Origin: an uncultured Gammaproteobacteria bacterium
GTDB lineage: Bacteria > Patescibacteriota > Patescibacteriia > UBA1558 > S5-K13
Reading direction: 5' to 3'
NCBI GenBank assembly: GCA_964640635.1
Contig: CAZXFD010000001.1
Location: 17,273 to 81,272 of the forward strand
DNA length: 64,000 bases
Made by a program: the position numbers and the translations under genes
In this document: piece after piece, positions 3,001 to 22,347 of the stretch
Numbering within the stretch: the stretch's first letter is position 1
How the letters are laid out: each line of letters starts with the position of its first letter
The notes under the pieces: model-generated
Database searches by the model: none
What the model saw: the letters and a program-made list of their open reading frames with translations, nothing else
What the model was told of the DNA's origin: nothing

Positions 3001-3104
3001 CAATGTGGTCTGGTAATAATGATGCTAAATTTTCTAATAATAAAATAGAGATATCAAATGATGGCGTTTGTGATGGAGAATCTGAGACAAATATGTATCA
3101 ATAA
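1..3104 (+). CDS. Large secreted cysteine-rich surface protein with a bacterial Ig-like (Big_2-like) segment; the 5' end is cut off by the window edge
   Basis: The frame of the listed ORF 63..3104 stays open back to position 3, so the N-terminus lies upstream of the window. More than 1000 aa, Cys- and Asn-rich, with repeated C-x-C and CC motifs. The segment around VKVEVSKG resembles Big_2 Ig-like domains. There is no C-terminal membrane anchor. Confidence 0.6.
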   Translation, partial: LNNAFRTGTITIESRVVSTTLNLNLFASSTLQVRLGCSVYNSDTDITSRQTKCIDESGTTHPGLTCCWNSSLNMCINDGSPVCSQPYLKLKSCQRDRDGVVISLGSPSPITNITNAPTDAIIHAQFSGRGDDFSMNKNTYAGGVEVYYCGKISTSNCTLANIGTTVSNDSGNDFVNYGHTSNFVPNAWYKIKLNDSIKDNNGNSLQPAQWYFKTASSTCHVTQVNVVPNPVQLPVLSSKRITALCSDDSCNICDSSDYQYSWGSRTPSIANVLNSNANISTTTGVSVGMTTVKVEVSKGNIQTTGNETNSVSVNKDSFRISNSVNVIVQANCSRFKDLETCTNGGCCFSNNRCISNLSTCNFGNFTMKSYYPRIETCLNPMIRAEFDAVVNGVSLNIDNVILEDLNKETKCKDDPQSICYEKVPIQFYSYSKSTSTSIINIQIIQALQRENKYRVRLLKSIRSIDGKNLTCDGPECSWEFKTINSPCELSYVNIIDPANHFYEYTQPNVEKNFIAEAIDSFGNPMVRVDGFYSWDWQWSSQDNTLVNIVGLNTNFSSTFKSNNKNGNTTVTIKAKKKTPAIGYTGEDIKDEANISLFMCNSPWIFEDYGFRLRYCMDGGLPELNDRKDAVITITNARTSGNGLIREYIFKYKEAKPVVYSNLDSKSKKGVLSIATDNRLGVKMFTQVFGSIFNNFVSRVLAQNLSYQDDLIGIRVYANDDHLSPRDWYRKTNEFDFKGSPQAKKVGFYDGLIDGRTTYINAGKKSISVDGAIDIHTEIYLISKNQDASPFTNNIYGQLLDGWKFNAQETLIDQEKIAQDVKRWQDLRTMENSLESYANSNKFCAKKLGTCSHCAEGSLNCDTSIITIGGECFSMSNVSCNSDSDCILNPLNLHKCFRTYPELTSGTYIRGLTNSLWGSWDSNLGAALKTTLPKDPENKFGNCQVDCPTCDETTCFDDKNKIFNCPTGSKVYYYKVGTYQSSAIKSLNYSIYSLFNYSDKSMWSGNNDAKFSNNKIEISNDGVCDGESETNMYQ

Positions 3105-3199: not shown

Positions 3200-4321
3200 T
3201 TGAACAATAAAATAGTTCAAGATAATATGAATAATTTTTCTACAGATCAAGATTCTTTATTGAAAGATGAGGCACAAAAGTATAAGGCCGATGATATTTT
3301 TTTAGATACAGATTATTCCTCGTCTTCTAATGTTATAAAACCAGGTGGTATTGCACCAAAGTCCCCAATTACAAATTATCGAGAATTAGTTAGTGAAATA
3401 GATAATTCTCAAGCAGATAAAATTAGGCCAAAATATTTTTTTATAGGATTGATTGTTCTAGTTTTAATTTTTGCATCTATAGGTTTTTATATATATAGTA
3501 AGTTTTTTATAAAGAAAAATGATTCTGGTCAAATATTTATAGATAATAATTCTCAAATAGAGAATCTTTTAAGCAAAGATGCAACAAGTAGTTTGTCTTT
3601 TGAGTCTAATTCAAGTCAGATTGTTATAAATGAAGATTCGGATAGTGATGGACTTAGCGACCAAGAAGAAAATATCTTTAAAACAGATAAAGATAAGATA
3701 GATACAGATGATGATGGGCTTTCTGATAAAGATGAAGTCAAAATGTATAAAACAGATCCATTGAATAGAGATTCGGATGGAGATAATTATTTAGATGGAG
3801 AAGAAGTAAAAAATGGATATGATCCAATGGGTCTAGGGAAACTTTTGAATTTTGATTTTTTAAACTCAAATTCAGAAAATGAGTCTATTTCTTTTAGTGT
3901 TGATATGGCAAATTGGGTAAGTATTAATTCTTATATCGAGTCTTTAAAAAATACATCTTTTTCTAATCCAATATATGATTTTAAATATCCAAATAATTTA
4001 GTAGTATCTATAGATGATAAAAAAATTATTTTATCTGGTGTAGATTTTAAAGTTTATTTTGAGGTAAGAGACAATAAATTAGAGCTTGATTTAAGTGATT
4101 GGGTGATGACTCAAAATGAATTTTCTTTATCTTCTAATAATTCTACTAATATAGCTAGCTTGGAAGCAATGATAGCTACTAGCGCTGGCACAGATTTCAA
4201 AAAAATTATTTTTATAGCAGACAAATCATCTGTTTATATATTTAAGTATATTGGCGATGTTGCTTTATTGGACAATATGAATATTTTCAAGTCTATCGCA
4301 TCTTCATTTAGTATAAAATAA
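3200..4321 (+). CDS. Membrane-anchored protein with thrombospondin type-3-like Ca-binding repeats
   Basis: An N-terminal hydrophobic helix (FFIGLIVLVLIFASIGFYIY) is followed by three DxDxDGxxDxxE repeats (DSDSDGLSDQEE, DTDDDGLSDKDE, DSDGDNYLDGEE) and then YDPMGLGKLL. The listed start is TTG; an ATG at 3227 is an alternative. Confidence 0.55.
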   Translation: MNNKIVQDNMNNFSTDQDSLLKDEAQKYKADDIFLDTDYSSSSNVIKPGGIAPKSPITNYRELVSEIDNSQADKIRPKYFFIGLIVLVLIFASIGFYIYSKFFIKKNDSGQIFIDNNSQIENLLSKDATSSLSFESNSSQIVINEDSDSDGLSDQEENIFKTDKDKIDTDDDGLSDKDEVKMYKTDPLNRDSDGDNYLDGEEVKNGYDPMGLGKLLNFDFLNSNSENESISFSVDMANWVSINSYIESLKNTSFSNPIYDFKYPNNLVVSIDDKKIILSGVDFKVYFEVRDNKLELDLSDWVMTQNEFSLSSNNSTNIASLEAMIATSAGTDFKKIIFIADKSSVYIFKYIGDVALLDNMNIFKSIASSFSIK

Positions 4322-4323
4322 GT

Positions 4324-5631
4324 ATGTTTGAAGAAAAACAAAATCAAAATATAGATACAAATATGGATCAAGCTCAAAAAGTTTTTGACAGTTTAGAATC
4401 AGAGAAAGAATTAGAAATCAATGATGATAATATTCACTCTATGCCAGAGAGATTTTTAATGCCCTCTGAAATGAAGTCTGGAAAAAATAATGCAGGACTT
4501 ATTATTTTGATAGTTGTGGTTTTGTTAGTAGTCTTAGCTGTCGCAGGATTTGCTTTTTATGTTTTTTATGATAACAAAAAAACTTCTGATCAGGATATTT
4601 TAAATGTAGAACAAAACACTACAACAACTCAAGAAATCATTGATATTAATACACAAGATAATTTACAAACTCCAGAATTGAGAGATAAAAAAAGATTAGA
4701 TGATGTTTTGGAAATAAGAACAGCGCTGAGTTTGTATTTTAAAGAACAAGGAAAGTATCCAAATTCACTATTTGATTTGTCATCTTATCTAACAACTATT
4801 CCAATAAATCCATCGCCAGGCGGGGAGTCTTATAATTATCAAGTTAAAGATGCTAATAAAGACTATATAGTTACATTTGCTTTTGAGGGAAATATTGAAA
4901 ATGGAAATCTCATTTTTAATTCTGGAAAATATCAATTAGGCCCTATTTTCGGAATAGAGCCATATAAAGAAGTTCAAAACAATGAAGATCAGGACTCGAT
5001 TGATAATGATAATAATATTCCAGACGATGTTAATGCCGACAATAACCAACAAATGCCTATTATTCCCCCAAAAGGAACTGACACTGATGATGATGGACTT
5101 ACAGATGCAGAAGAGATTATTTTTCAAACAAATGTGGATTTAGTAGATACAGACTCAGATACCTACAATGATAAAGAAGAAATTCTTAATTTATATGATC
5201 CAACAAAGATAGACGGAAAATTATTAGAAAATATTTCATTGGCAAGGGTTTTTATTGAAGAAGAATTAAAGTATTCTTTTGTTTATCCAGCAAAGTGGAT
5301 GGCTCAAACAAAAGATAAAGAAACAAGGGATGTTATGATTTTTGAAGCAGAGAATAAGGATTTTATAAAAATTCAGGCAAAAGATAATCCACAAGAATTG
5401 TCTGCAAAAAATTGGTATTTAAACACCTCTCCAGAAGTTAATCCAGACGATTTGAGTAATTACAAAAACAGGAATAATCTTGTCGGAGTTAAATCAAAAG
5501 ATGGTTTAAATGTTTATATTTCAACTGGTAACAAAATTTACATAATATCTTATATTTCAATAGATACAGTGAAGTTAAATTATCAGTCCATATTTGATTT
5601 GATTGCAAACACCTTCAAAATTTCAATTTAA
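4324..5631 (+). CDS. Membrane-anchored TSP3-repeat protein, a paralog of the preceding gene, carrying a pseudopilin (GspG)-like segment
   Basis: A TM helix (GLIILIVVVLLVVLAVAGFAFYVFY) is followed by RLDDVLEIRTALSLYFKEQGKYPNS, which fits the R..L.D...I..AL..Y...G.YP pattern of GspG/pseudopilins. There is no canonical prepilin cleavage motif. TSP3 repeats DTDDDGLTDAEE and DTDSDTYNDKEE are followed by YDPTKIDGKLL. The C-terminus is similar to that of the 3200 gene. Confidence 0.55.
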   Translation: MFEEKQNQNIDTNMDQAQKVFDSLESEKELEINDDNIHSMPERFLMPSEMKSGKNNAGLIILIVVVLLVVLAVAGFAFYVFYDNKKTSDQDILNVEQNTTTTQEIIDINTQDNLQTPELRDKKRLDDVLEIRTALSLYFKEQGKYPNSLFDLSSYLTTIPINPSPGGESYNYQVKDANKDYIVTFAFEGNIENGNLIFNSGKYQLGPIFGIEPYKEVQNNEDQDSIDNDNNIPDDVNADNNQQMPIIPPKGTDTDDDGLTDAEEIIFQTNVDLVDTDSDTYNDKEEILNLYDPTKIDGKLLENISLARVFIEEELKYSFVYPAKWMAQTKDKETRDVMIFEAENKDFIKIQAKDNPQELSAKNWYLNTSPEVNPDDLSNYKNRNNLVGVKSKDGLNVYISTGNKIYIISYISIDTVKLNYQSIFDLIANTFKISI

Positions 5632-9963: not shown

Positions 9964-12642
9964 ATGGATTTTTTGGAAAAAACAAAAATAGTTTATTGTG
10001 ATAAGTGTAATAATGAACACTGTAATTATTGTTATGGAAGCAAGTATTATTTGAATATGGAGGGGGTAAATATTTATTGGAGTAAGGACTTAGATGGCGC
10101 TTCTATAAAAATTGATGAAATAAAAAAAATTAGCAATGCAATGCTTAATGTAATACTTTTTTTGATTTCATTGTGTGGTTTTGTATTATTTGTTTATAGA
10201 TTTTATAAAATTTTAGAAAATAGTGGTGATGTTTTACTTCAAGAAAACTGGAAAGGCCCAATAGAGCTTATTATTTGGATCAGTATGCTTTTCGCAATGT
10301 TTTTGTTTTATAGATTAAATAGCAAAAATAGTAGTAAATACAAAATATTAATACCAAAATCAGAATCTCGTTCTAGTGATAATCTTGTTTCACAAAACAT
10401 ATATAGCACACTTTCTCACGATGTAAAGAATTATTTAATAGATGCGTATTATATTTCAAAAAAATATAAATTTTCTACCATTGATTCAACATCTCTTTTT
10501 TTAGCATTATTAAAACACGACAATACCAAAATTATTATTGGAAGACTGGGTATTTCAATTGGCGAATTAGAACAAAAGCTTGTTGGATATTTACTTGAAA
10601 ATCAAAAAAAGAATGTATCAGTAGGTGTGGATGATTTAAGATTTATAATGTTTAATGCGTATTATTTAGCAAGAAAATCAAATTCGAATCATGTAGGCTT
10701 CAATCACGTTCTTACGGCAAATATTTTGTGTAGTGAGTATGTATTGGAATTGTTTTTAGATTTTGGAATTAGCATAGATCAGATAAACAATGTAATAGAG
10801 TGGATTAAATTGTCAGAGAATCTTGTCAGCAAAAGCAAAAAACATAGATCGGTTGCAATTTTTAAGCCTCGCGGAGATGTAAATAGGGCCATGACAGCTG
10901 TTGCGACGCCATATTTAGATAGTTTTAGTGAGGATATTACGCTTCTTGCAAGACGTGGATACTTGCCACTTAATGTTGTAAGAGAAGAAAAATTGCAAGA
11001 AATTTATAGGATAATAGAGTCAAATAATCAAAGTCTTGTAATGTTGGGATTGCCTGGTGTGGGCAAAGATAGCATGATAGAGACTATTGCAAACAATATG
11101 GCCCAAGAAAATGTTCCACATGTTTTACAAGATAAGAGACTTGTGAGCTTATCTATATCAAGATTTGTTTCAGTGTCTTCAGCAGAAGGAAAAATACAAG
11201 AAAATTTTTTGAGACTTATGAATGAGGTTATAAGATCTGGAAATATAATTCTTGTAATAGGCGATATTCATAATATGGTAGGAATTTCTTCTGCTGGTAT
11301 TGAAAATGTTGATTTGTCAGAAGTTTTCGCAGATATAATATCTCAATATAATATAATGGTTATTGGTACTTCAAATCCAAAAGATTATATAAAGTATTTA
11401 GAAAATAGTCGTCTTGGAACGCTGCTTTCCAAAGTTGAAATACAAGAACCAAATGCAAATGAAACAATTCAAATTTTGGAAGCAAAAAGTTTTTCGCTTG
11501 AGTATAAATATCGTGTTTATTTTTCATATCAATCTTTGGAGAGGATTGTAAAGCTTACCAACAATTATATTCATGATAGATTTCAACCAGAAAAATCTAT
11601 TAGAATAATGGAAGAGCTTGCAGTAATGATTTCAAAGCAAAAAGATACACGCCTTATTACAAGCGAGCATGTCTCTAGGGTTATATCAGAAAAAATTCAT
11701 ATCCCACTTGAAAAGGTAACAGCAACAGAAGGAGAAAAGCTTTTGAAGTTAGAAGAAATAATGCATAAAAGAATGGTTGGTCAAGAGGAGGCAATTTCTA
11801 TGGTTGCCTCTGCGCTTAGAAGGGCAAGAGCAGAAATAAGAGATGAAAAAAAACCAATTACAAACTTATTATTTTTGGGTCCTACTGGAGTTGGTAAAAC
11901 AGAGCTTGCGAAAACAGTTGCAGAAGTATTTTTTGGAAATGAAAGTAGTATGATAAGGCTCGATATGAGTGAATATCAAGAAGAAAATAGCTTATTAAGA
12001 CTTATTGGTGCAGAGAATTTGGAAAATTCAGGCATTCTTACTGAGTCAGTAAGAAATAATCCGTTTTCTCTTGTGTTGCTAGATGAAATAGAAAAAGCAC
12101 ATCCAGATATTTTGAATATATTTTTACAGGTTATGGATGATGGAAGACTTACAGACTCAAGCGGTAGAACTGTAGATTTTTCAAATTGTATTATTATAGC
12201 CACATCTAATGCAGGGGCATTTTATATACAAGATGAATTGTCTCGTGGTTCTGATTTAGAAAGCATAAAAAATAATTTGATGGAAAAAGAGTTAAGAAAT
12301 TATTTTAAACCAGAGTTTTTAAATAGGTTTAATGGTATAGTATTGTTTAAGCCACTTAGTAAGGTTGAGATTGAGCAAATTGCAGTTATGATTTTGAATA
12401 AATTATCGCTACGACTCAAAGAAAAGGGTATAGAATTCATAGCTTCATCAGATTCAGTCAAAAAATTAGCAGAATTAGGTTTTAGTAAGGATTTTGGTGC
12501 AAGACCATTAAAGCGTACAATAGAGACTCGTGTTGATGATGCTCTTGCTACTTTTTTATTGACAAATCAGATAACAAGACGTGATAAGGCTATATTAGAG
12601 GCAGACTTAAGTATTAGAATTGAAAAGGCCTCTAAGCTCTGA
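9964..12642 (+). CDS. Membrane-anchored ClpC/ClpA-like double-AAA+ protein with a degenerate first ATPase module
   Basis: N-terminal Cys cluster CDKCNNEHCNYC, two hydrophobic helices and two Clp_N-like repeats. The first AAA+ module (D1) has Walker A GLPGVGKDS and Walker B ILVIGDIH (hhhhGD in place of hhhhDE). The second module (D2) is canonical: GPTGVGKT, VLLDEIEKAHPD, ATSN, GARPLKR. Confidence 0.8.
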   Translation: MDFLEKTKIVYCDKCNNEHCNYCYGSKYYLNMEGVNIYWSKDLDGASIKIDEIKKISNAMLNVILFLISLCGFVLFVYRFYKILENSGDVLLQENWKGPIELIIWISMLFAMFLFYRLNSKNSSKYKILIPKSESRSSDNLVSQNIYSTLSHDVKNYLIDAYYISKKYKFSTIDSTSLFLALLKHDNTKIIIGRLGISIGELEQKLVGYLLENQKKNVSVGVDDLRFIMFNAYYLARKSNSNHVGFNHVLTANILCSEYVLELFLDFGISIDQINNVIEWIKLSENLVSKSKKHRSVAIFKPRGDVNRAMTAVATPYLDSFSEDITLLARRGYLPLNVVREEKLQEIYRIIESNNQSLVMLGLPGVGKDSMIETIANNMAQENVPHVLQDKRLVSLSISRFVSVSSAEGKIQENFLRLMNEVIRSGNIILVIGDIHNMVGISSAGIENVDLSEVFADIISQYNIMVIGTSNPKDYIKYLENSRLGTLLSKVEIQEPNANETIQILEAKSFSLEYKYRVYFSYQSLERIVKLTNNYIHDRFQPEKSIRIMEELAVMISKQKDTRLITSEHVSRVISEKIHIPLEKVTATEGEKLLKLEEIMHKRMVGQEEAISMVASALRRARAEIRDEKKPITNLLFLGPTGVGKTELAKTVAEVFFGNESSMIRLDMSEYQEENSLLRLIGAENLENSGILTESVRNNPFSLVLLDEIEKAHPDILNIFLQVMDDGRLTDSSGRTVDFSNCIIIATSNAGAFYIQDELSRGSDLESIKNNLMEKELRNYFKPEFLNRFNGIVLFKPLSKVEIEQIAVMILNKLSLRLKEKGIEFIASSDSVKKLAELGFSKDFGARPLKRTIETRVDDALATFLLTNQITRRDKAILEADLSIRIEKASKL

Positions 12643-12717: not shown

Positions 12718-14130
12718 ATGGTAAAAAAAGATATAAAAGTCAAGGAGAATACAGAATTAATGGACAAAATTATATCACTTTGCAAAAGAAGAGGCTTTGT
12801 TTATGCATCTTCTGAAATTTATGGTGGCTTTGCAGCTGTATATGATTATGGTCCATACGGGGTAGAGCTACTCAATAATATTAAGAGTTTTTGGTGGAAA
12901 TGTATGGTTCAGTATCGTGAAGATATTGTAGGATTAGATAGTGCTATTTTTATGCATCCAAAAATATGGGAAGCAAGTGGTCATGTTTCTGGTTTTTCAG
13001 ACCCCCTTACTGAGTGTTATAAGTGTCATTATAGATTTAGAGTAGATACAGCACTAGAGGAAATTGGAATTAAGGCTGATGAAAAAATGAGTTTGGAAGA
13101 AATAGAGACTGTTTTTAGAAAAAATATCAAAAAAATAAATTGCCCAAAATGTGGAGCTAATGATTTTACAAGTATAAAAAAATTTAATTTATTAGTTCAG
13201 TCTAATTTGGGAAATTTTTCTTCTGACGTTGACAAGGATCCAGTTTATTTAAGGGGGGAGACAGCTCAGGGAATTTATGTAAATTACAAAAATGTATTAG
13301 ACTCGTCACGCGTAAAAGTTCCATTTGGTATCGCTCAGATTGGTAAGGCTTTTAGAAACGAGATTACAGCTCGTCAATTTATATTTCGTACTCGTGAATT
13401 CGAGCAGATGGAAATGCAATATTTTGTCGCTCCAAAGGAGGATATGAAAGAATATGAAAAGTTAAAAGATTATAGATGGCAGTATTATTTGAATTTAGGC
13501 ATTAAAAAAGAAAATCTTAAATGGCATAAGCATGAGAATTTGGTTTTTTATGCAAAGGAAGCTTATGATATAGAATATAAATTTCCATTCGGTTTTAAGG
13601 AATTAGAAGGTCTTCATGCAAGAGGAAATTATGATTTGACTCAACATGCTAAGTTTTCTGGAAAAGATATGAACTATCTCGATCCTTATACAAATGATAA
13701 GTATATACCTCACATAGTAGAATCATCGGCTGGAGTGGGTCGAATATTTTTGGCGCTTATTTGCGAGGCTTACAAAGAAGAAAAAATTGGTGAAGAAGAA
13801 AGAGTTGTCTTGAAATTGAGCCCTATTATAGCGCCAATAAAAATTGCAGTTTTCCCACTTTTGAAAAATAAACCAGAACTTGTTGAAAAGGCGCACGAGA
13901 TATTTAAAAATTTAAGTAAATTATATAGGTGTGAGTTTGATGATAATGGAAACATTGGAAAAAGATATAGAAGACAAGACGAAATAGGAACTCCATATTG
14001 CCTGACTATTGATTTTGATACACTAGAAAATAACGAAGTCACGGTAAGAAGTAGAGATACAATGGATCAATGTAGGATAAAAATTGATGAGCTTCAAGAT
14101 TATTTTAAAGATAAATTAAATTGTTATTAG
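12718..14130 (+). CDS. glyQS: Glycine--tRNA ligase (dimeric class II type)
   Basis: N-terminus RRGFVYASSEIYGGFAAVYDYGPYG and class II motifs (FRNEITARQFIFRTREFEQMEMQYF); 470 aa. Confidence 0.85.
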   Translation: MVKKDIKVKENTELMDKIISLCKRRGFVYASSEIYGGFAAVYDYGPYGVELLNNIKSFWWKCMVQYREDIVGLDSAIFMHPKIWEASGHVSGFSDPLTECYKCHYRFRVDTALEEIGIKADEKMSLEEIETVFRKNIKKINCPKCGANDFTSIKKFNLLVQSNLGNFSSDVDKDPVYLRGETAQGIYVNYKNVLDSSRVKVPFGIAQIGKAFRNEITARQFIFRTREFEQMEMQYFVAPKEDMKEYEKLKDYRWQYYLNLGIKKENLKWHKHENLVFYAKEAYDIEYKFPFGFKELEGLHARGNYDLTQHAKFSGKDMNYLDPYTNDKYIPHIVESSAGVGRIFLALICEAYKEEKIGEEERVVLKLSPIIAPIKIAVFPLLKNKPELVEKAHEIFKNLSKLYRCEFDDNGNIGKRYRRQDEIGTPYCLTIDFDTLENNEVTVRSRDTMDQCRIKIDELQDYFKDKLNCY

Positions 14131-14156: not shown

Positions 14157-15038
14157 ATGAAAAAATATAAAAAAACATTATTTGCACTGATTCCTATTCT
14201 TATTTTGTTTGTTGTAAATATTGTAAAAGCACAAATACAGCTTCAAGTTGCCCTACCCACCGCAAATGATGGAACAATAAGTAGTGTATCAGGACTTAGC
14301 GATTATATAAGAATAGTATATAACTATGGAATTTATGCAGGTAGTGTTATCGCTGTTATAATGATTTCTATAAATGCCTTTAAGTGGGTATCAGCAGGTG
14401 GAAACAAAAGCACGATAGGAAAGGCAAAGGACGGAATGATAACTTCAATGGTGGGGCTTTTTGTTCTTTTTGGATCTTATCTTATTCTTAGCACAATAAA
14501 TGGAGAGCTCGTGGCCCTGAAAGCATTAGATGTTAGGCCTTTAGACACGAAGGCATATTTGGAAAAAGTAGAAAGATCTTCTGGTTTAGATACAGCGTAT
14601 TATGATGACATGTATGTTGCAGATCAAGGACGCGAGAGCGAAGGCAATCCAAGACCAGTAGCTGTATTGAGATGTGCTAATGATTCGGACACTAGTCATT
14701 ATTGCATTGACCTTCCATTAGGTCAGCCAGATATTCAATATGAGTTTAGCACTACAATAGGTGCATGCGAATATACTACTATGCAATGTGTTTCAAACGC
14801 TCGTAATTGCAATAAGACCTGCCTAAACTATAGTGATTGCGGAAATTTTTCTAATGGTTATTGTGATGGAGCGGGTCCACAAGTTTGTTGTAGTCGGCAA
14901 AAAAGACCTAATGAGACAACCTGTAGTCATAATATACAGTGTTTAAGTGGATGTTGTTGTAATTTTAGCTGGCCTACAAGAGATGTGTGTAGATCAACAG
15001 CAAATTGTAATTTACTTAATAAGAGCTGTATTCAGTAA
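14157..15038 (+). CDS. Pilin-like membrane protein (signal peptide plus two hydrophobic helices, a VirB2/TrbC-like topology) with a cysteine-rich C-terminal domain
   Basis: A signal-like N-terminus and the conserved core DYIRIVYNYGIYAGSVIAVIMISINAFKWVSAGGNKSTIGKAKDGMITSMVGLFVLFGSYLILSTINGELVALKAL, followed by about 150 aa with more than 20 Cys (GYCDGAGPQVCCS...). The assignment to a pilin fold rests on topology only. Confidence 0.6.
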   Translation: MKKYKKTLFALIPILILFVVNIVKAQIQLQVALPTANDGTISSVSGLSDYIRIVYNYGIYAGSVIAVIMISINAFKWVSAGGNKSTIGKAKDGMITSMVGLFVLFGSYLILSTINGELVALKALDVRPLDTKAYLEKVERSSGLDTAYYDDMYVADQGRESEGNPRPVAVLRCANDSDTSHYCIDLPLGQPDIQYEFSTTIGACEYTTMQCVSNARNCNKTCLNYSDCGNFSNGYCDGAGPQVCCSRQKRPNETTCSHNIQCLSGCCCNFSWPTRDVCRSTANCNLLNKSCIQ

Positions 15039-15061
15039 GTAGGTATATAATTTTTAATATA

Positions 15062-16057
15062 ATGCAAAACATTTTTTTGAAGAGATTAAAAGATGCTAAG
15101 ATAACTCATATTTTGTTTTTTGTTGTAATTTTTATTTTTTTTATTGTTAAAATTACAAAAGCAATACCACTCGAACATGCAATACCAGGGCCAGATGGAG
15201 ACATAAGTAGTGTAGAGGGTTTAAGTGATTACATAAGAATTGTATATAGTTATGGAATATATGCAGGTAGCGTCTTGGCGGTTGTCATGATATCTGTAAA
15301 TGCTTTTAAGTGGGTATCAGCAGGTGGGAATAAAGGCTCTATAGATAAGGCAAAAAATGGAATGATAATGTCTATAGTGGGACTTTTTCTTGTTTTTGGA
15401 TCTTATCTTATACTCAGTACAATAAATGGAGAGCTCGTGGCCTTGAAAGCATTGAATGTGTATCCTATATCACCTCAAGAATTTGTGGGAGTAGATTTTT
15501 CGACAATGAAACTTGCTGAAACTTTACAACAAGATATAGCAAATGATATTCGTTGTAATTTAATCGCAGATAATAATTGTCCACCAGGCAAGGTTTGTAG
15601 AAAGTTAAAGGATAAATATATTTGCACAGAACCACTAGGAGATAATATGGCCTGTGAAATACAAAGTGAATGTAGGCCCCCACTTACATGTAATGCGCAA
15701 ACATTGAAATGTGAAATCCCTCCTGTTTTACAGTGTGCAGGAATTTTAGATAATTATAGATGCTTTACAAATCTTTACCCTAGTCCCAGTTTTGGATATT
15801 GTGACAACAGACAATGTGTTCCTTGTCGTGGAGAAGGACAGATATGTACAACTATAACTAGAATAGTGCCTTTGGTAACTTTTGTAGCATGGCCCATGCA
15901 ATGTGTAAATAACAATAGTGGGATTTGTGGATTGCCATTTTATGAGGCAATTGAACCATGGGATCAATTACCGGATTCTTATAAAGCACCTAATACGGGT
16001 TCTTGTACTGGTGGTAGTTGGTTTCAGCATCAAGTTGGAAATTATTATTGTGAATAG
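15062..16057 (+). CDS. Tandem paralog of the 14157 gene with a different cysteine-rich C-terminal domain
   Basis: The core is nearly identical to its neighbour at the DNA level (for example ggatcttatcttatactcagtacaataaatggagagctcgtggcc). The C-terminal ~190 aa has EGF- or knottin-like Cys spacing. The first 13 aa (MQNIFLKRLKDAK) match the N-terminus of the downstream M16 peptidase. Confidence 0.6.
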   Translation: MQNIFLKRLKDAKITHILFFVVIFIFFIVKITKAIPLEHAIPGPDGDISSVEGLSDYIRIVYSYGIYAGSVLAVVMISVNAFKWVSAGGNKGSIDKAKNGMIMSIVGLFLVFGSYLILSTINGELVALKALNVYPISPQEFVGVDFSTMKLAETLQQDIANDIRCNLIADNNCPPGKVCRKLKDKYICTEPLGDNMACEIQSECRPPLTCNAQTLKCEIPPVLQCAGILDNYRCFTNLYPSPSFGYCDNRQCVPCRGEGQICTTITRIVPLVTFVAWPMQCVNNNSGICGLPFYEAIEPWDQLPDSYKAPNTGSCTGGSWFQHQVGNYYCE

Positions 16058-16119
16058 TATATTAACGTTGACTAGGAATTTATAGAATTATAAGGATATG
16101 TTAATTTAATTAAAATTTT

Positions 16120-17376
16120 ATGCAAAATATATTTTTAAAAAAACTTAAAGATACAAAAGCGATTACTGTTTTGGTTTTGATAAAAACAGGTTCAAGATAT
16201 GAAAGTGATACAAATCGTGGTGTCGCGCATTTTTTGGAACATTTACTTTTTAAAGGAACCAAAAAAAGGCCCAATTCCCTTGCTATTACTAAAGAGCTAG
16301 ACAGTATTGGGGCAGAATTTAATGCCTTTACCTCAAAGGATAAAACGGGTTTTTATATAAAAGCACCTAAAGAGCATCTTGAAAAAGCGCTAGATGTTTT
16401 ATCTGATATGCTTTTTAATTCTTTGTTTTCTCCAAGAGAGATAGAAAAAGAAAGAGGAGTAGTGCTTGAAGAATTCAATATGTATTATGATAATCCAATG
16501 ATGTTTATTGATTCACTGTTGGAGTGTGGAGTTTTTCACGGACATAATTTAGGAAAATTAATCTTGGGGGATCAAAATGTTATAAAAAATATAAAAAGAG
16601 CAGAAATACTTAAGTTCTATAAAAAATATTATAATTTAGAAAATCTCGTAATAGGTGTTTCTGGAAATTTTGATGAGAATAAATTGCTTCCACTTGTAAA
16701 AAAATATTTCAAAATAAAAGAATACAATACTACAAATAATTTTGATGAATTTCTAGGAGATCAAAAACAGGAAAGAATACTTATCAAAAACAAAGAAACA
16801 GATCAGGTTCATACTGCTATTGGATTTTTAGGAACGTCTATATTTGATAAAGATTATTATTCAAGTAAGCTTCTTTCTATAATATTGGGTGGAAATATGA
16901 GCTCAAGATTATTTTTGAAGATTAGAGAAAAGATGGGGCTTTGTTATTATATAAAGTCATACACAGATAGTTATCAGGATACAGGAATATTTTCTATTAT
17001 ATCAGGCCTTGATAAATCAAGAATTGAAAGTGCAGTAGAGACAATTTTGAAAGAGTTAAAAAGTATTAAGCAAAATGGAGTTACAGAAGAAGAACTTAAG
17101 AGAGCAAAGGAGTTTATAGATGGAAAATTAGTTTTGAATCTTGAAGATAGTGCAAATATTGTTGAGTGGTATGGAGACCAATTGCTTTTACAAGGGAAAG
17201 CTATAACACCTGAAGAGTTTTTTAAACATATAAACAAAATCAGCATAAAGGATATCAAAAAAGTTGCAAATAGAATATTTCTAAAAGAAAAATTAAATCT
17301 TGCTGTAATAGGGCCATTTAAAAATTCCAAAGAATGGGAGTTAAAATTTAAAAATATTATAAATAAAATTTTATAA
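16120..17376 (+). CDS. M16 family (insulinase/pitrilysin-like) zinc peptidase
   Basis: Inverted zinc motif HFLEHLLFKGT (HxxEH); 418 aa. Confidence 0.8.
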   Translation: MQNIFLKKLKDTKAITVLVLIKTGSRYESDTNRGVAHFLEHLLFKGTKKRPNSLAITKELDSIGAEFNAFTSKDKTGFYIKAPKEHLEKALDVLSDMLFNSLFSPREIEKERGVVLEEFNMYYDNPMMFIDSLLECGVFHGHNLGKLILGDQNVIKNIKRAEILKFYKKYYNLENLVIGVSGNFDENKLLPLVKKYFKIKEYNTTNNFDEFLGDQKQERILIKNKETDQVHTAIGFLGTSIFDKDYYSSKLLSIILGGNMSSRLFLKIREKMGLCYYIKSYTDSYQDTGIFSIISGLDKSRIESAVETILKELKSIKQNGVTEEELKRAKEFIDGKLVLNLEDSANIVEWYGDQLLLQGKAITPEEFFKHINKISIKDIKKVANRIFLKEKLNLAVIGPFKNSKEWELKFKNIINKIL

Positions 17377-17410: not shown

Positions 17411-18430
17411 ATGGAAACAAGAACAGTTCACATTTCAACACTTACTTTTGTAAAAATAATAGCCATAGCACTTATTGCATTATTTTTATTTTTGGTAAGA
17501 GATATATTGGCTATGATATTTTTGGCTTTTGTATTAGCATCTGCCATGAAGCCAGGAGTTAATTGGTTTGTAAGTAAAAAAATTCCGAAAACACTTGGAA
17601 TAGGAATAATGTATATAATTTTTTTAACAGTCCTTGCTGTTTTGATGGTTATTATTGTGCCCCCAGTATCGAGAGAGATTACCCAGCTTGCAAATCATTT
17701 TCCAGATTATTATGAAAGAATTAATCTTTTTTTAGCAAAGTTTAATTCAGGGTTTGCTAGCAGTGGCAATGGTCAATCACAACTTACACTAGCTAATATG
17801 AGCGGAGGATTGAGTAGTGCAGTTGGTTCTATTTTTAATACAACATTTCAAGTATTTAGCGGAGTTTTCACTTTTATTACAATTTTAATTCTTGCCTTTT
17901 ATTTTGCTAGCGAAGAAAGTAAAATGAGAAAGTTCTTGAGAGGTCATATTCCAGTAAAAAAAAGAGATTATATTGTAGATCTTGTTTCTAAAGTTCAAAC
18001 AAAGTTGGGTTATTGGCTTAGAGGACAATTGTTGTTGTGTCTTATTGTATTTGGGGCAACATTTTTACTCTTGGCAATTTTTGGAATAAAGTATGCGCTG
18101 GTACTTGCAATCTTAGCGGGTCTTTTTGAAATCATTCCTTTTTTTGGGCCATGGGTTGCAGGACTAGTCGGTGTTTTAATAACGTTTTCTATTTCTCCTA
18201 CAAAGGCAATAATTGCAGCTATTATATATTTAGCAGTTCAACAGGCTGAATCAGCATTTATAGTTCCAAAGGTAATGAGCAGATCTGTGGGACTAAATCC
18301 GCTTTTGGTTGTAATTGCTATACTTATTGGTTTTCAAATTGGTGGAGTGATGGGGGCACTTATTTCAGTTCCATTTATTGCAATGTTGTCAGTTTTTGTT
18401 TGGGATATATTAGATAAAAAAAATGATTAA
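17411..18430 (+). CDS. AI-2E family (PerM/YhhT-like) membrane transporter
   Basis: About 340 aa with roughly 8 hydrophobic helices and the typical size and topology of the family. Confidence 0.55.
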   Translation: METRTVHISTLTFVKIIAIALIALFLFLVRDILAMIFLAFVLASAMKPGVNWFVSKKIPKTLGIGIMYIIFLTVLAVLMVIIVPPVSREITQLANHFPDYYERINLFLAKFNSGFASSGNGQSQLTLANMSGGLSSAVGSIFNTTFQVFSGVFTFITILILAFYFASEESKMRKFLRGHIPVKKRDYIVDLVSKVQTKLGYWLRGQLLLCLIVFGATFLLLAIFGIKYALVLAILAGLFEIIPFFGPWVAGLVGVLITFSISPTKAIIAAIIYLAVQQAESAFIVPKVMSRSVGLNPLLVVIAILIGFQIGGVMGALISVPFIAMLSVFVWDILDKKND

Positions 18431-21531: not shown

Positions 21532-22347
21532 ATGTTAATAGACACTCATGCACATTTGAACTTTGAGGCATACGACAGCGATCTAGAGGATGTTGTTAAA
21601 AGATGCATTGACTTTCCTATGATGGTGATAAATGTAGGATCACAGTTTGATACATCAAAAAAAGCCGTAGAGCTTTCAAAGCATAAAAATTTTTATAGCT
21701 CATTAGGACTTCATCCAATACATGTATTTGATGAAGATTTTATTTTGGAAGATTATCAAACTTTGATTGATGACAACACTTCGACTTCGCTCAGTGCGTA
21801 TTCGCAAGTTGTTGCGATAGGAGAAACAGGTTTAGATTATTTTCATATAAAAGAAAAATCTATTCCAATTGATGAGGTTATAAAAAAACAAAAAGATATT
21901 TTTATATGTCATATTGATTTAGCACGACAAAATAATTTACCGCTTATTTTGCACGGTAGAAATTCGCAGGAATTAAATACGTGTTATAGGGATATTTTTA
22001 GGATATTAAAATCAGAGGATTATTTTAGCGGTGTCGTTCATTGCTTTGGAGGAGGCGTTGACGAGGCAAGGGTAGCTCTAAATTTAGAATTATATATTGG
22101 ATTTACTGGTATAATTACATTTCCAAAGGCAGAAGATTTACGTGAGGTTGTAAAATTTGTGCCACTTGATAGAATACTCATAGAAACAGATTCTCCATAT
22201 TTAGCCCCTCAAGCAGTAAGGGGCCAAAGAAATGAGCCTATTTATGTAGAAGAAGTAGCAAAAGAAATAGCAAGGATTAAAGGGTTGGACGTAGAAGACG
22301 TGATAAATGCTACGTGGGAAAATGCAAAAAATCTTTTTAAAATTTAA
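21532..22347 (+). CDS. tatD: TatD family metal-dependent DNase/hydrolase
   Basis: MLIDTHAHLNF, GETGLDY and the histidines of the TatD fold. Confidence 0.85.
   Translation: MLIDTHAHLNFEAYDSDLEDVVKRCIDFPMMVINVGSQFDTSKKAVELSKHKNFYSSLGLHPIHVFDEDFILEDYQTLIDDNTSTSLSAYSQVVAIGETGLDYFHIKEKSIPIDEVIKKQKDIFICHIDLARQNNLPLILHGRNSQELNTCYRDIFRILKSEDYFSGVVHCFGGGVDEARVALNLELYIGFTGIITFPKAEDLREVVKFVPLDRILIETDSPYLAPQAVRGQRNEPIYVEEVAKEIARIKGLDVEDVINATWENAKNLFKI

Follow-up and report, generated by a model that had tools for sequence, protein, structure and literature searches.

Introduction

Why does the second of two adjacent pilin-like genes begin with almost the same residues as the peptidase gene that follows it? 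The question is raised by a locus on contig CAZXFD010000001.1, within a stretch of 64,000 nucleotides (nt) that we analysed as a whole and call the window. The DNA has a GC content of 31.6% and comes from an ultra-small bacterium that belongs to the Candidate Phyla Radiation (CPR, or Patescibacteria). Two VirB2-like pilin genes stand here in tandem on the + strand, gene 1 at 14157-15038 (293 amino acids, aa) and gene 2 at 15062-16057 (331 aa); upstream lies the gene for glycyl-tRNA synthetase (GlyRS, 12718-14130), and downstream that for an M16 (pitrilysin-family) peptidase of 418 aa (16120-17376), both on the same strand.

A first-pass annotation of this DNA saw in the shared start the scar of a tandem duplication. 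That proposal is correct in one respect and not in another: the shared N-terminus is a real local scar, but gene 2 is not a plain tandem copy of gene 1. We find that the start is native to M16, that the body of gene 2 combines a pilin domain very close to that of gene 1 with a C-terminal part unrelated to it, and that relatives have a single pilin gene at this place. In our view gene 2 is probably a chimeric mosaic pilin gene, produced by illegitimate recombination of the duplication type that captured the start of the M16 gene.

The shared start

The first 13 residues of gene 2 (MQNIFLKRLKDAK, encoded at 15062-15100) and of the M16 peptidase (MQNIFLKKLKDTK, encoded at 16120-16158) agree at 11 of 13 positions, and the open reading frames (ORFs) and sequences are exactly as the first-pass annotation described them. 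It also called the DNA of the two starts similar and proposed aligning 15062-15100 with 16120-16160; this gives 29 identities over the first 39 nt, ungapped. When the first 13 residues are compared among all 53 ATG-initiated ORFs of at least 100 aa in the window, gene 2 and M16 share 11, and the best of the other 1377 pairs (1378 in total) shares 6. A wider comparison of the M16 N-terminus with 273 ORF N-termini, taken from the window and from all loci fetched, gives 8-13 matches for M16 orthologues, 11 for gene 2 and at most 6 for the rest. At the nucleotide level, about 250 kb of related loci contain a back-translated MQNIFLK pattern at M16 starts only, plus gene 2 in L010, an identical contig. 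The 13-residue start therefore recurs on no unrelated gene in the window or the related loci, which marks it as a local scar and not as the generic signal sequence that had been named as the alternative.

L010 is an independent Logan contig (run SRR10083293, 1995 nt) that is 100% identical to the window across the 3' end of gene 1, the 23-nt spacer between genes 1 and 2 (spacer 1, 15039-15061, +), gene 2, the 62-nt spacer before M16 (spacer 2, 16058-16119, +) and the M16 start. Because it reproduces both junctions, the arrangement is not an assembly artefact.

A third near-match in the window, ATGCAAAAAATCTTTTTAAAA at 22322-22342 with one mismatch to the degenerate MQNIFLK DNA pattern, was rejected as chance in AT-rich DNA: it overlaps the last codons of a TatD-like gene, whose product ends in ENAKNLFKI, and is not in frame with them.

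Direction of transfer

All M16 orthologues that were retrieved keep the N-terminus in question. Those of at least 57% identity begin with M[QK]NIF.K, and more distant CPR homologues of M16 retain PLKETKAVTVLVL, the equivalent of KLKDTKAITVLVL in the window. The Pfam match of M16 begins at residue 8, so residues 8-13 of the shared start lie within the domain; in gene 2 there is no M16 domain past the N-terminal 13-20 residues. A sequence so deeply conserved in M16, and partly inside its Pfam domain, gives the direction of the event as M16 to gene 2: the sequence is native to M16 and was acquired by gene 2, with M16 codons 1-13 (16120-16158, +) as its source. The scar had been said to fix both the direction and the approximate end points of the duplication. 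The direction is established, but the end points of one simple duplication are not fixed by it.

The same end of the M16 gene has a further peculiarity. Its first 30 codons (16120-16209), nearly all of which end in A or T, are unusually conserved at synonymous sites: the proportion of synonymous differences (pS) between the window and the related locus L001 (6001-6090) is 0.17, versus 0.54 gene-wide, and for the same codons in the window and L002 (3724-3813) it is 0.44 versus 0.62. This suggests selection on the 5' mRNA, for example on translation initiation.

The junction and the borrowed codons

Likeness to M16 ends in gene 2 at about 15100-15121, and likeness to the pilin starts at about 15123, inside the hydrophobic core of the signal peptide; this is where the first-pass annotation put the junction. 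Past the 13 codons there is weak similarity to M16 over gene 2 codons 14-20 (12 of 21 nt, TTTTGTTTTTT versus TTTTGGTTTTG), and then the comparison is random (8 of 30). The product of the join is an ORF that stays in frame, whose 5' end derives from the downstream gene and whose body derives from the upstream one.

M16 has a basic N-terminus (K7, K8, K10, K13), after which comes the hydrophobic strand AITVLVLI. In gene 2 this N-terminus opens a predicted signal peptide of 34 aa, in which the n-region MQNIFLKRLKDAK (15062-15100, +) is followed by a 16-residue hydrophobic core and by TKA at positions -3 to -1. The core and cleavage region (ITHILFFVVIFIFFIVKITKA) occupy 15101-15163 (+), as placed by alignments anchored on the KA cleavage site and by a hydropathy segment at residues 9-39. 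Judged from this layout, the captured M16 start would now be the basic n-region of the gene 2 signal peptide.

The borrowed codons also bear a mark of selection. Over the 13 codons, gene 2 and M16 differ at 10 nt, of which 7 are synonymous and 3 non-synonymous, though only 6 of the 36 sites are synonymous (neutral P = 2.7e-4). Such an excess of synonymous differences indicates that the peptide is translated and constrained, and so supports the ATG at 15062 as the start codon.

The three parts of gene 2

Gene 2 is a mosaic of three parts: the M16 start (about 39-60 nt), a VirB2-like pilin domain and a Cys-rich cassette unrelated to that of gene 1. The pilin domain, with two predicted transmembrane helices, occupies 15128-15487 (+) and is paralogous to 14196-14561 of gene 1. 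The cassette follows at 15488-16057 (+), with eighteen cysteines beyond residue 140, and is homologous to the cassettes of the syntenic pilins in the related loci L030 and L035.

At the DNA level the match between genes 1 and 2 is confined to 14196-14533 and 15128-15459, with 78.7% identity over 338 nt. The encoded domains are 72% identical over gene 2 residues 31-142 (E = 1e-50), and the two are mutual closest relatives, with 78% aa identity to each other versus at most 62% to any relative. The number of synonymous substitutions per site (dS) in the pilin domain is 0.74 between genes 1 and 2 and 1.1-1.2 between each of them and L001; housekeeping genes of the window and L001 give about 1.0.

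Past residue 142-149 (about 14561 in gene 1 and 15487 in gene 2) the homology stops abruptly. The C-terminal 55-60% of gene 2 has no similarity to the C-terminus of gene 1: the Smith-Waterman score is 46, versus 38.5 +/- 6.7 for composition-preserving shuffles, and 143 of 1000 shuffles reach 46. The same score for gene 1 and the L001 pilin C-terminus is 313. Nor is there DNA-level similarity of the gene 2 C-terminus to those of gene 1 or L001, and a tblastn search for a source elsewhere in the window matched gene 2 alone. Derivation from gene 1 by frameshift or overprinting was considered as well and rejected, the best match being E = 0.1 when the gene 1 and L001 C-termini were run by tblastn against all frames of 15039-16160.

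These results change what can be said of the duplicated unit. It had been drawn from inside gene 1 to inside M16, and copies of such a unit would be homologous throughout; what matches is the 338-nt pilin domain and the 39-nt M16 piece, while the C-terminal ~570 nt and the spacer do not, co-duplication of the spacer being not significant. The claim that the whole paralogue pair arose in situ likewise goes further than the scar can show, given that the C-terminus of gene 2 belongs to an older cassette class, that of L030 and L035.

Relatives and the single-copy state

Eight related loci were retrieved with M16 as anchor. The M16 identity to the window is 90% for L001 (Candidatus Komeilibacteria S5_K13), 89% for L024, 87% for L025, 70% for L026, 69% for L002, about 63% for L030 and L035, and 60% for L033. 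A tree from M16 and permease identities places the window with L001 and L024 with L025, joins these two pairs and then the pair of L026 and L002, and leaves L030 and L033 outside.

Each of the eight has a single pilin gene upstream of M16 (L001 5042-5920; L002 2646-3719; L024 177-1397; L025 168-1145; L026 5003-5980; L030 2631-3971; L033 2952-3992; L035 3001-4332), and the window alone has two. GlyRS, one pilin-like gene, M16 and a permease follow one another in the seven loci whose contigs reach through GlyRS; the contigs of L024 and L025 break off shortly upstream of their one pilin gene. L001, with GlyRS, one pilin and M16, has the unduplicated arrangement that the first-pass annotation predicted for related genomes. 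Gene 1 is the full-length orthologue of its pilin gene (47% aa identity, E = 2e-90), and the single pilin in relatives makes gene 2 the extra gene. In more distant CPR genomes GlyRS lies a few tens to ~335 nt from M16, and no pilin was detected between them; the pilin gene at this position is an insertion peculiar to this clade. When metagenomes were scanned with M16 as anchor, no close relatives turned up, all matches having at most 41% identity.

The single pilins of L026 and L002 deserve a closer look. Their signal peptides (5003-5104 and 2646-2747, respectively) are 34 aa long, the same length as in gene 2, and colinear with it. Their n-regions (MLKIFYKLEKKYK and MIKISNKLNKKTK) are, gene 2 aside, the best non-M16 matches to the M16 N-terminus among the 273 ORFs, with 6 of 13 residues each. 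They may go back to earlier captures of the M16 start that have since decayed, and capture of a start followed by loss of the upstream copy may then have happened before; the lead is weak because K-rich n-regions easily resemble each other.

In two loci, position 4 of the N-terminus varies jointly in pilin and M16: both proteins of L035 have V there (MQKVF at 3001-3039 and MKNVF at 4426-4464), and both proteins of L030 have I (MKKIF at 2631-2669 and MKNIF at 4001-4039). This is the sole case of such covariation in the other genomes and too little to use.

Upstream of a 65%-identical M16 in a further relative (L028, 1-3816; L029, 1-1451), Fic-domain and GIY-YIG genes replace the GlyRS-pilin segment, which points to a left flank of M16 that is prone to rearrangement in this clade.

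Cassette classes

With phmmer, residues 143-331 of gene 2 were compared exhaustively with 1.84 billion representative proteins, which gave one real homologue, P0125 (E = 1.8e-6, 32% identity over 165 residues), which is the syntenic pilin of L035. The other match, P0124, is a low-complexity repeat protein and was treated as spurious. The syntenic pilin of L030 aligns with gene 2 in BLASTP over 297 aa, covering both the pilin domain and the cassette, at 34% identity (E = 6e-39). A search for full-length homologues of gene 2 among 5.8 billion proteins returned only gene 2, gene 1 and one distant pilin.

Pairwise C-terminal scores, expressed as z relative to shuffles, sort the cassettes into four classes that look unrelated to one another. 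Class A holds gene 1 and L001 (z 31); class B1, L002 and L025 (z 22), with a partial member in L032 (z 7); class B2, L024, L026 and L033 (z 12-17); and class B3, gene 2, L030 and P0125 (z 20-21). Membership of class B3 makes the C-terminus of gene 2 part of an older cassette lineage and not a diverged copy of that of gene 1. The classes cut across the housekeeping tree: the sisters L024 and L025, whose M16 proteins are 94% identical, carry B2 and B1, respectively, and so do L026 and L002. The pilin domains follow the genomes (89% identity for L024 and L025, 63% for L026 and L002).

The pilins of L024 (177-560), L030 (2631-3000) and L035 (3001-3370) contain an additional Cys-rich domain (QPCSNFAGA.CV...CTGEC...FCDGT.NTSCCG), inserted after the signal peptide and ahead of the pilin domain. 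This is a second position for modular additions.

A proposed origin of gene 2

From these pieces we infer the following course of events. An illegitimate recombination of the duplication type would have joined a copy of M16 codons 1 to 13-~20, in frame, to the core of a pilin signal peptide. The M16 peptide would give the 34-aa Sec-type signal peptide its start codon and its positively charged n-region (K7, R8, K10, K13), on the premise that the M16 N-terminus can stand in for the usual MKKYKK n-region. A start-less pilin body would thereby gain expression and export and take second place in an array of two genes between GlyRS and M16; export itself, VirB2-like insertion of a hairpin into the membrane and display of the Cys-rich ectodomain are predicted from the domain architecture. 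The pilin domain would be either an in-situ copy of that of gene 1 or one homogenised with gene 1 by gene conversion. The B3 cassette would come from a different lineage of the same locus, either kept by vertical descent in an older array or gained from a foreign allele through recombination, and the locus would exchange or sort cassettes independently of the species tree.

Several points weigh against this origin or blur its outline. The similarity of the DNA is no more than the aa identity demands: the same codon is used for 4 of the 10 identical non-Met residues, versus 5.9 expected from random back-translation with the codon usage of this genome. The 39-nt piece matches the window M16 at 29 of 39 positions but the M16 genes of L026 and L034 at 32 and 31, respectively, and at Leu9 and position 12 it has TTA and NCT as in those alleles, where the window and L001 M16 genes have CTT and ACA. 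Being nearer to the L026/L034 alleles, the piece may stem from an old or imported fusion and not from a recent copy made within the lineage. The junction lies in T-rich low-complexity sequence (about 15100-15125) and is not placeable to the base, the signal peptide and its cleavage are predicted from hydropathy and alignment, and the argument from synonymous and non-synonymous differences carries an ascertainment bias, since the match was noticed because the peptide is conserved.

The spacers add a difficulty of the same kind. The M16-proximal part of spacer 2 is orthologous to the L001 spacer, and across spacer 2 and the M16 start (window 16103-16160, L001 5985-6041) the identity is 91%. An M16-proximal motif, ATTTAACTAAATTTTT, is present in spacer 2 of the window and in L001, L024 and L025, and is not recognisable in spacer 1. 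A copy of the M16 upstream spacer before gene 2 is not significant (9 of 17 nt, by MAFFT and local alignment relative to an empirical null). A plain tandem duplication would have copied the motif, so its absence calls for a later deletion or a more complex event. The first 14 nt of spacer 1, TAGGTATATAATTT, match L001 sequence just past the pilin stop at 13 of 14 positions (p ~0.09, not significant alone). Spacer lengths before M16 range from 4 to 84 nt among the relatives, and a scan for promoters and terminators was uninformative (31 sites versus 24 expected).

Alternative histories

The simplest alternative keeps the first-pass scheme in strict form: a single tandem duplication in this lineage, from inside gene 1 to M16 codon 13, followed by point mutation only. 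Its geometry does fit the order observed (gene 1, spacer, M16 start with pilin interior, spacer, M16), L001 is single-copy, and genes 1 and 2 have sister pilin domains. It leaves the C-terminus without explanation, for that of gene 2 is unlike that of gene 1, while the latter still strongly resembles that of L001 over a longer divergence. The L030/P0125-type cassette of gene 2 predates the split of those lineages, and B3 membership largely refutes the scheme; with a spacer duplication that is undetectable and a homology that ends so abruptly, we consider it very unlikely. There are two further ideas. The two starts could be alike by chance or convergence, either because K/I/L/N-rich N-termini resemble each other in a genome of 32% GC or because a common leader or targeting peptide was selected; MK(K/N)IF-type starts are indeed common in such AT-rich DNA, the chance near-match at 22322 illustrates the risk, and DNA identity that stays within what the peptide requires would suit this idea. 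Against it stand 11 of 13 matches where the background maximum is 6 of 13 (1377 pairs, and ~260 non-M16 ORFs), the position of the two genes as immediate neighbours, the lack of the motif anywhere else in the ~250 kb of related loci, and the place of the sequence within a conserved fold in M16, which makes a shared targeting role implausible; we regard it as highly improbable. A mis-join of two strain variants during assembly hardly merits belief at all. The locus is polymorphic between strains, as the differing cassettes of L024 and L025 show, and metagenome bins can mix strains, but L010 spans both junctions at full identity and a mis-join would not yield an in-frame fusion of M16 and pilin with diverged codons.

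A more serious competitor, though still rather unlikely in our estimate, puts the fusion of the M16 start before the split of the window and L001, possibly in an ancestor shared with L026 and L002. Gene 2 would then be the surviving member of an array lost in L001, L024 and L025, with a pilin domain homogenised later by gene conversion. With 7 differences at 6 sites, synonymous positions in the 13 codons have reached saturation, and the share of identical codons falls below random expectation; the TTA and NCT codons are common to gene 2 and outgroup M16 alleles, and the 34-aa signal peptides of L026 and L002, with n-regions 6/13 identical to M16, and the age of class B3 point the same way. On the other side, at least two independent losses are needed, and n-regions rich in K that agree at 6 of 13 residues are weak support. 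Codons differ more often in the 13-codon piece than over the pilin domain, though only marginally (P 0.06-0.08). Tests for clustered differences within the pilin domain, the mark of conversion tracts, give no significant result (longest identical run 24 nt, permutation p 0.12; first two-thirds versus last third, Fisher p 0.76). A relic of the gene 2 3' end in the 80-nt spacer of L001 would prove loss there; the candidate scored at the null mean and was rejected. The data are compatible with two histories: duplication in the window lineage followed by replacement of the cassette, or an older fusion whose pilin domain was homogenised with gene 1 later and which was lost in L001.

Comparison with known systems

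Tandem arrays of 2-11 highly variable VirB2-like pilin genes occur across Patescibacteria, with a mean identity within arrays of 25% and a maximum of 54% (PMC12102498). The window resembles these arrays (Microb Genom 2025, PMC12102498) in having two adjacent VirB2-like pilin genes in a CPR genome, with members that differ strongly. It departs from them in that the pilin domains are 72-78% identical and the variability resides in long Cys-rich C-terminal cassettes. The array also stands between GlyRS and M16 here, and one member has a start captured from a housekeeping neighbour.

Chimeric genes at the join points of tandem duplications are textbook bacterial genetics, and fusions of this sort were reportedly described by Anderson and Roth. 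The in-frame ORF of mixed origin and the single-copy relatives agree with that picture. What differs is that the copies of the unit are not homologous throughout, cassette and spacer being different, so that one or more additional recombination events, or else a source that is not gene 1, must be assumed.

Cassette-type variation of surface proteins is known from pilE/pilS of Neisseria, from the amplified VirB2/Trw pilins of Bartonella and from Anaplasma. Here too, a conserved membrane or assembly domain goes together with exposed parts that are hypervariable, the distribution of variants contradicts the species tree, and conserved flanking genes could act as recombination arms. Unlike those systems, the 64-kb window holds no silent cassette store, exchange is deduced from phylogenetic discordance among eight genomes, and a host-related or antigenic role is only putative. 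Homology-facilitated illegitimate recombination, which occurs in naturally transformable bacteria, would explain a foreign cassette anchored in M16 and joined at microhomology (TTTTG-rich); its standard outcome is different, in that recipient DNA is replaced and the 5' end of the anchor is not duplicated.

A broader and more speculative idea, which we think rather unlikely as a whole, is that pilins gain, swap and lose at least four cassette classes in a hotspot between GlyRS and M16 in this Komeilibacteria-like clade, and that new members form by capture of the M16 start. The window would then show a transient two-gene intermediate, and the long signal peptides of L026 and L002 would be decayed scars.

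As pilin arrays and join-point chimeras are both known, current understanding is unchanged, and the local particulars are the captured M16 start and the cassette-like ectodomains. The scar offers a clear case from nature in which a gene body with no start apparently became fit for expression and export through the first codons of a housekeeping neighbour. In these host-dependent CPR bacteria, the VirB2-like pilin scaffold at the conserved locus bears Cys-rich ectodomains that are interchangeable, and sister genomes differ in them; if the proteins mediate contact with a host, the locus could mark host-range or strain-level variation.

The pilin-like genes and their neighbours

The assignment of genes 1 and 2 as pilin genes draws on matches to PF18895 (T4SS_pilin) that fall just short of the gathering cut-off of 26.6 bits, with 20.5 bits for gene 1 (E = 5e-4) and 26.2 bits for gene 2 (E = 8.8e-6); the syntenic homologues in L030, L033 and L035 have precomputed PF18895 hits. 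Judged by Kyte-Doolittle hydropathy only, both proteins have an N-terminal hydrophobic segment followed by two more (residues 9-39, 60-82 and 99-126 in gene 2; 4-33, 53-75 and 93-119 in gene 1), the pattern of a signal peptide and a two-helix hairpin. The signal peptide of gene 1 is short and ordinary (MKKYKKTLFALIPILILFVVNIVKA), and its class A C-terminal cassette is Cys-rich as well. The two genes, 23 nt apart, form the tandem array, an array being defined as at least two pilin genes that adjoin or have a single gene between them (PMC12102498), and there is no further pilin copy in the 64-kb window.

The M16 gene matches PF00675 (E = 6e-40) and PF05193 (E = 3e-46), with 137 and 158 bits, respectively, and its translation contains the zinc motif HFLEH. 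All genes of the locus are on the + strand, in the order ClpB-like ATPase (9964-12642), GlyRS, gene 1, gene 2, M16 peptidase and AI-2E-type permease (17411-18430); a methylase is a neighbour as well. Ahead of its Clp_N and AAA domains, the ClpB-like AAA+ protein carries a motif that is rich in Cys and resembles a zinc ribbon (YCDKCNNEHCNYCYGS), followed by hydrophobic segments, and this unusual N-terminus is also kept in L001 (826-3498).

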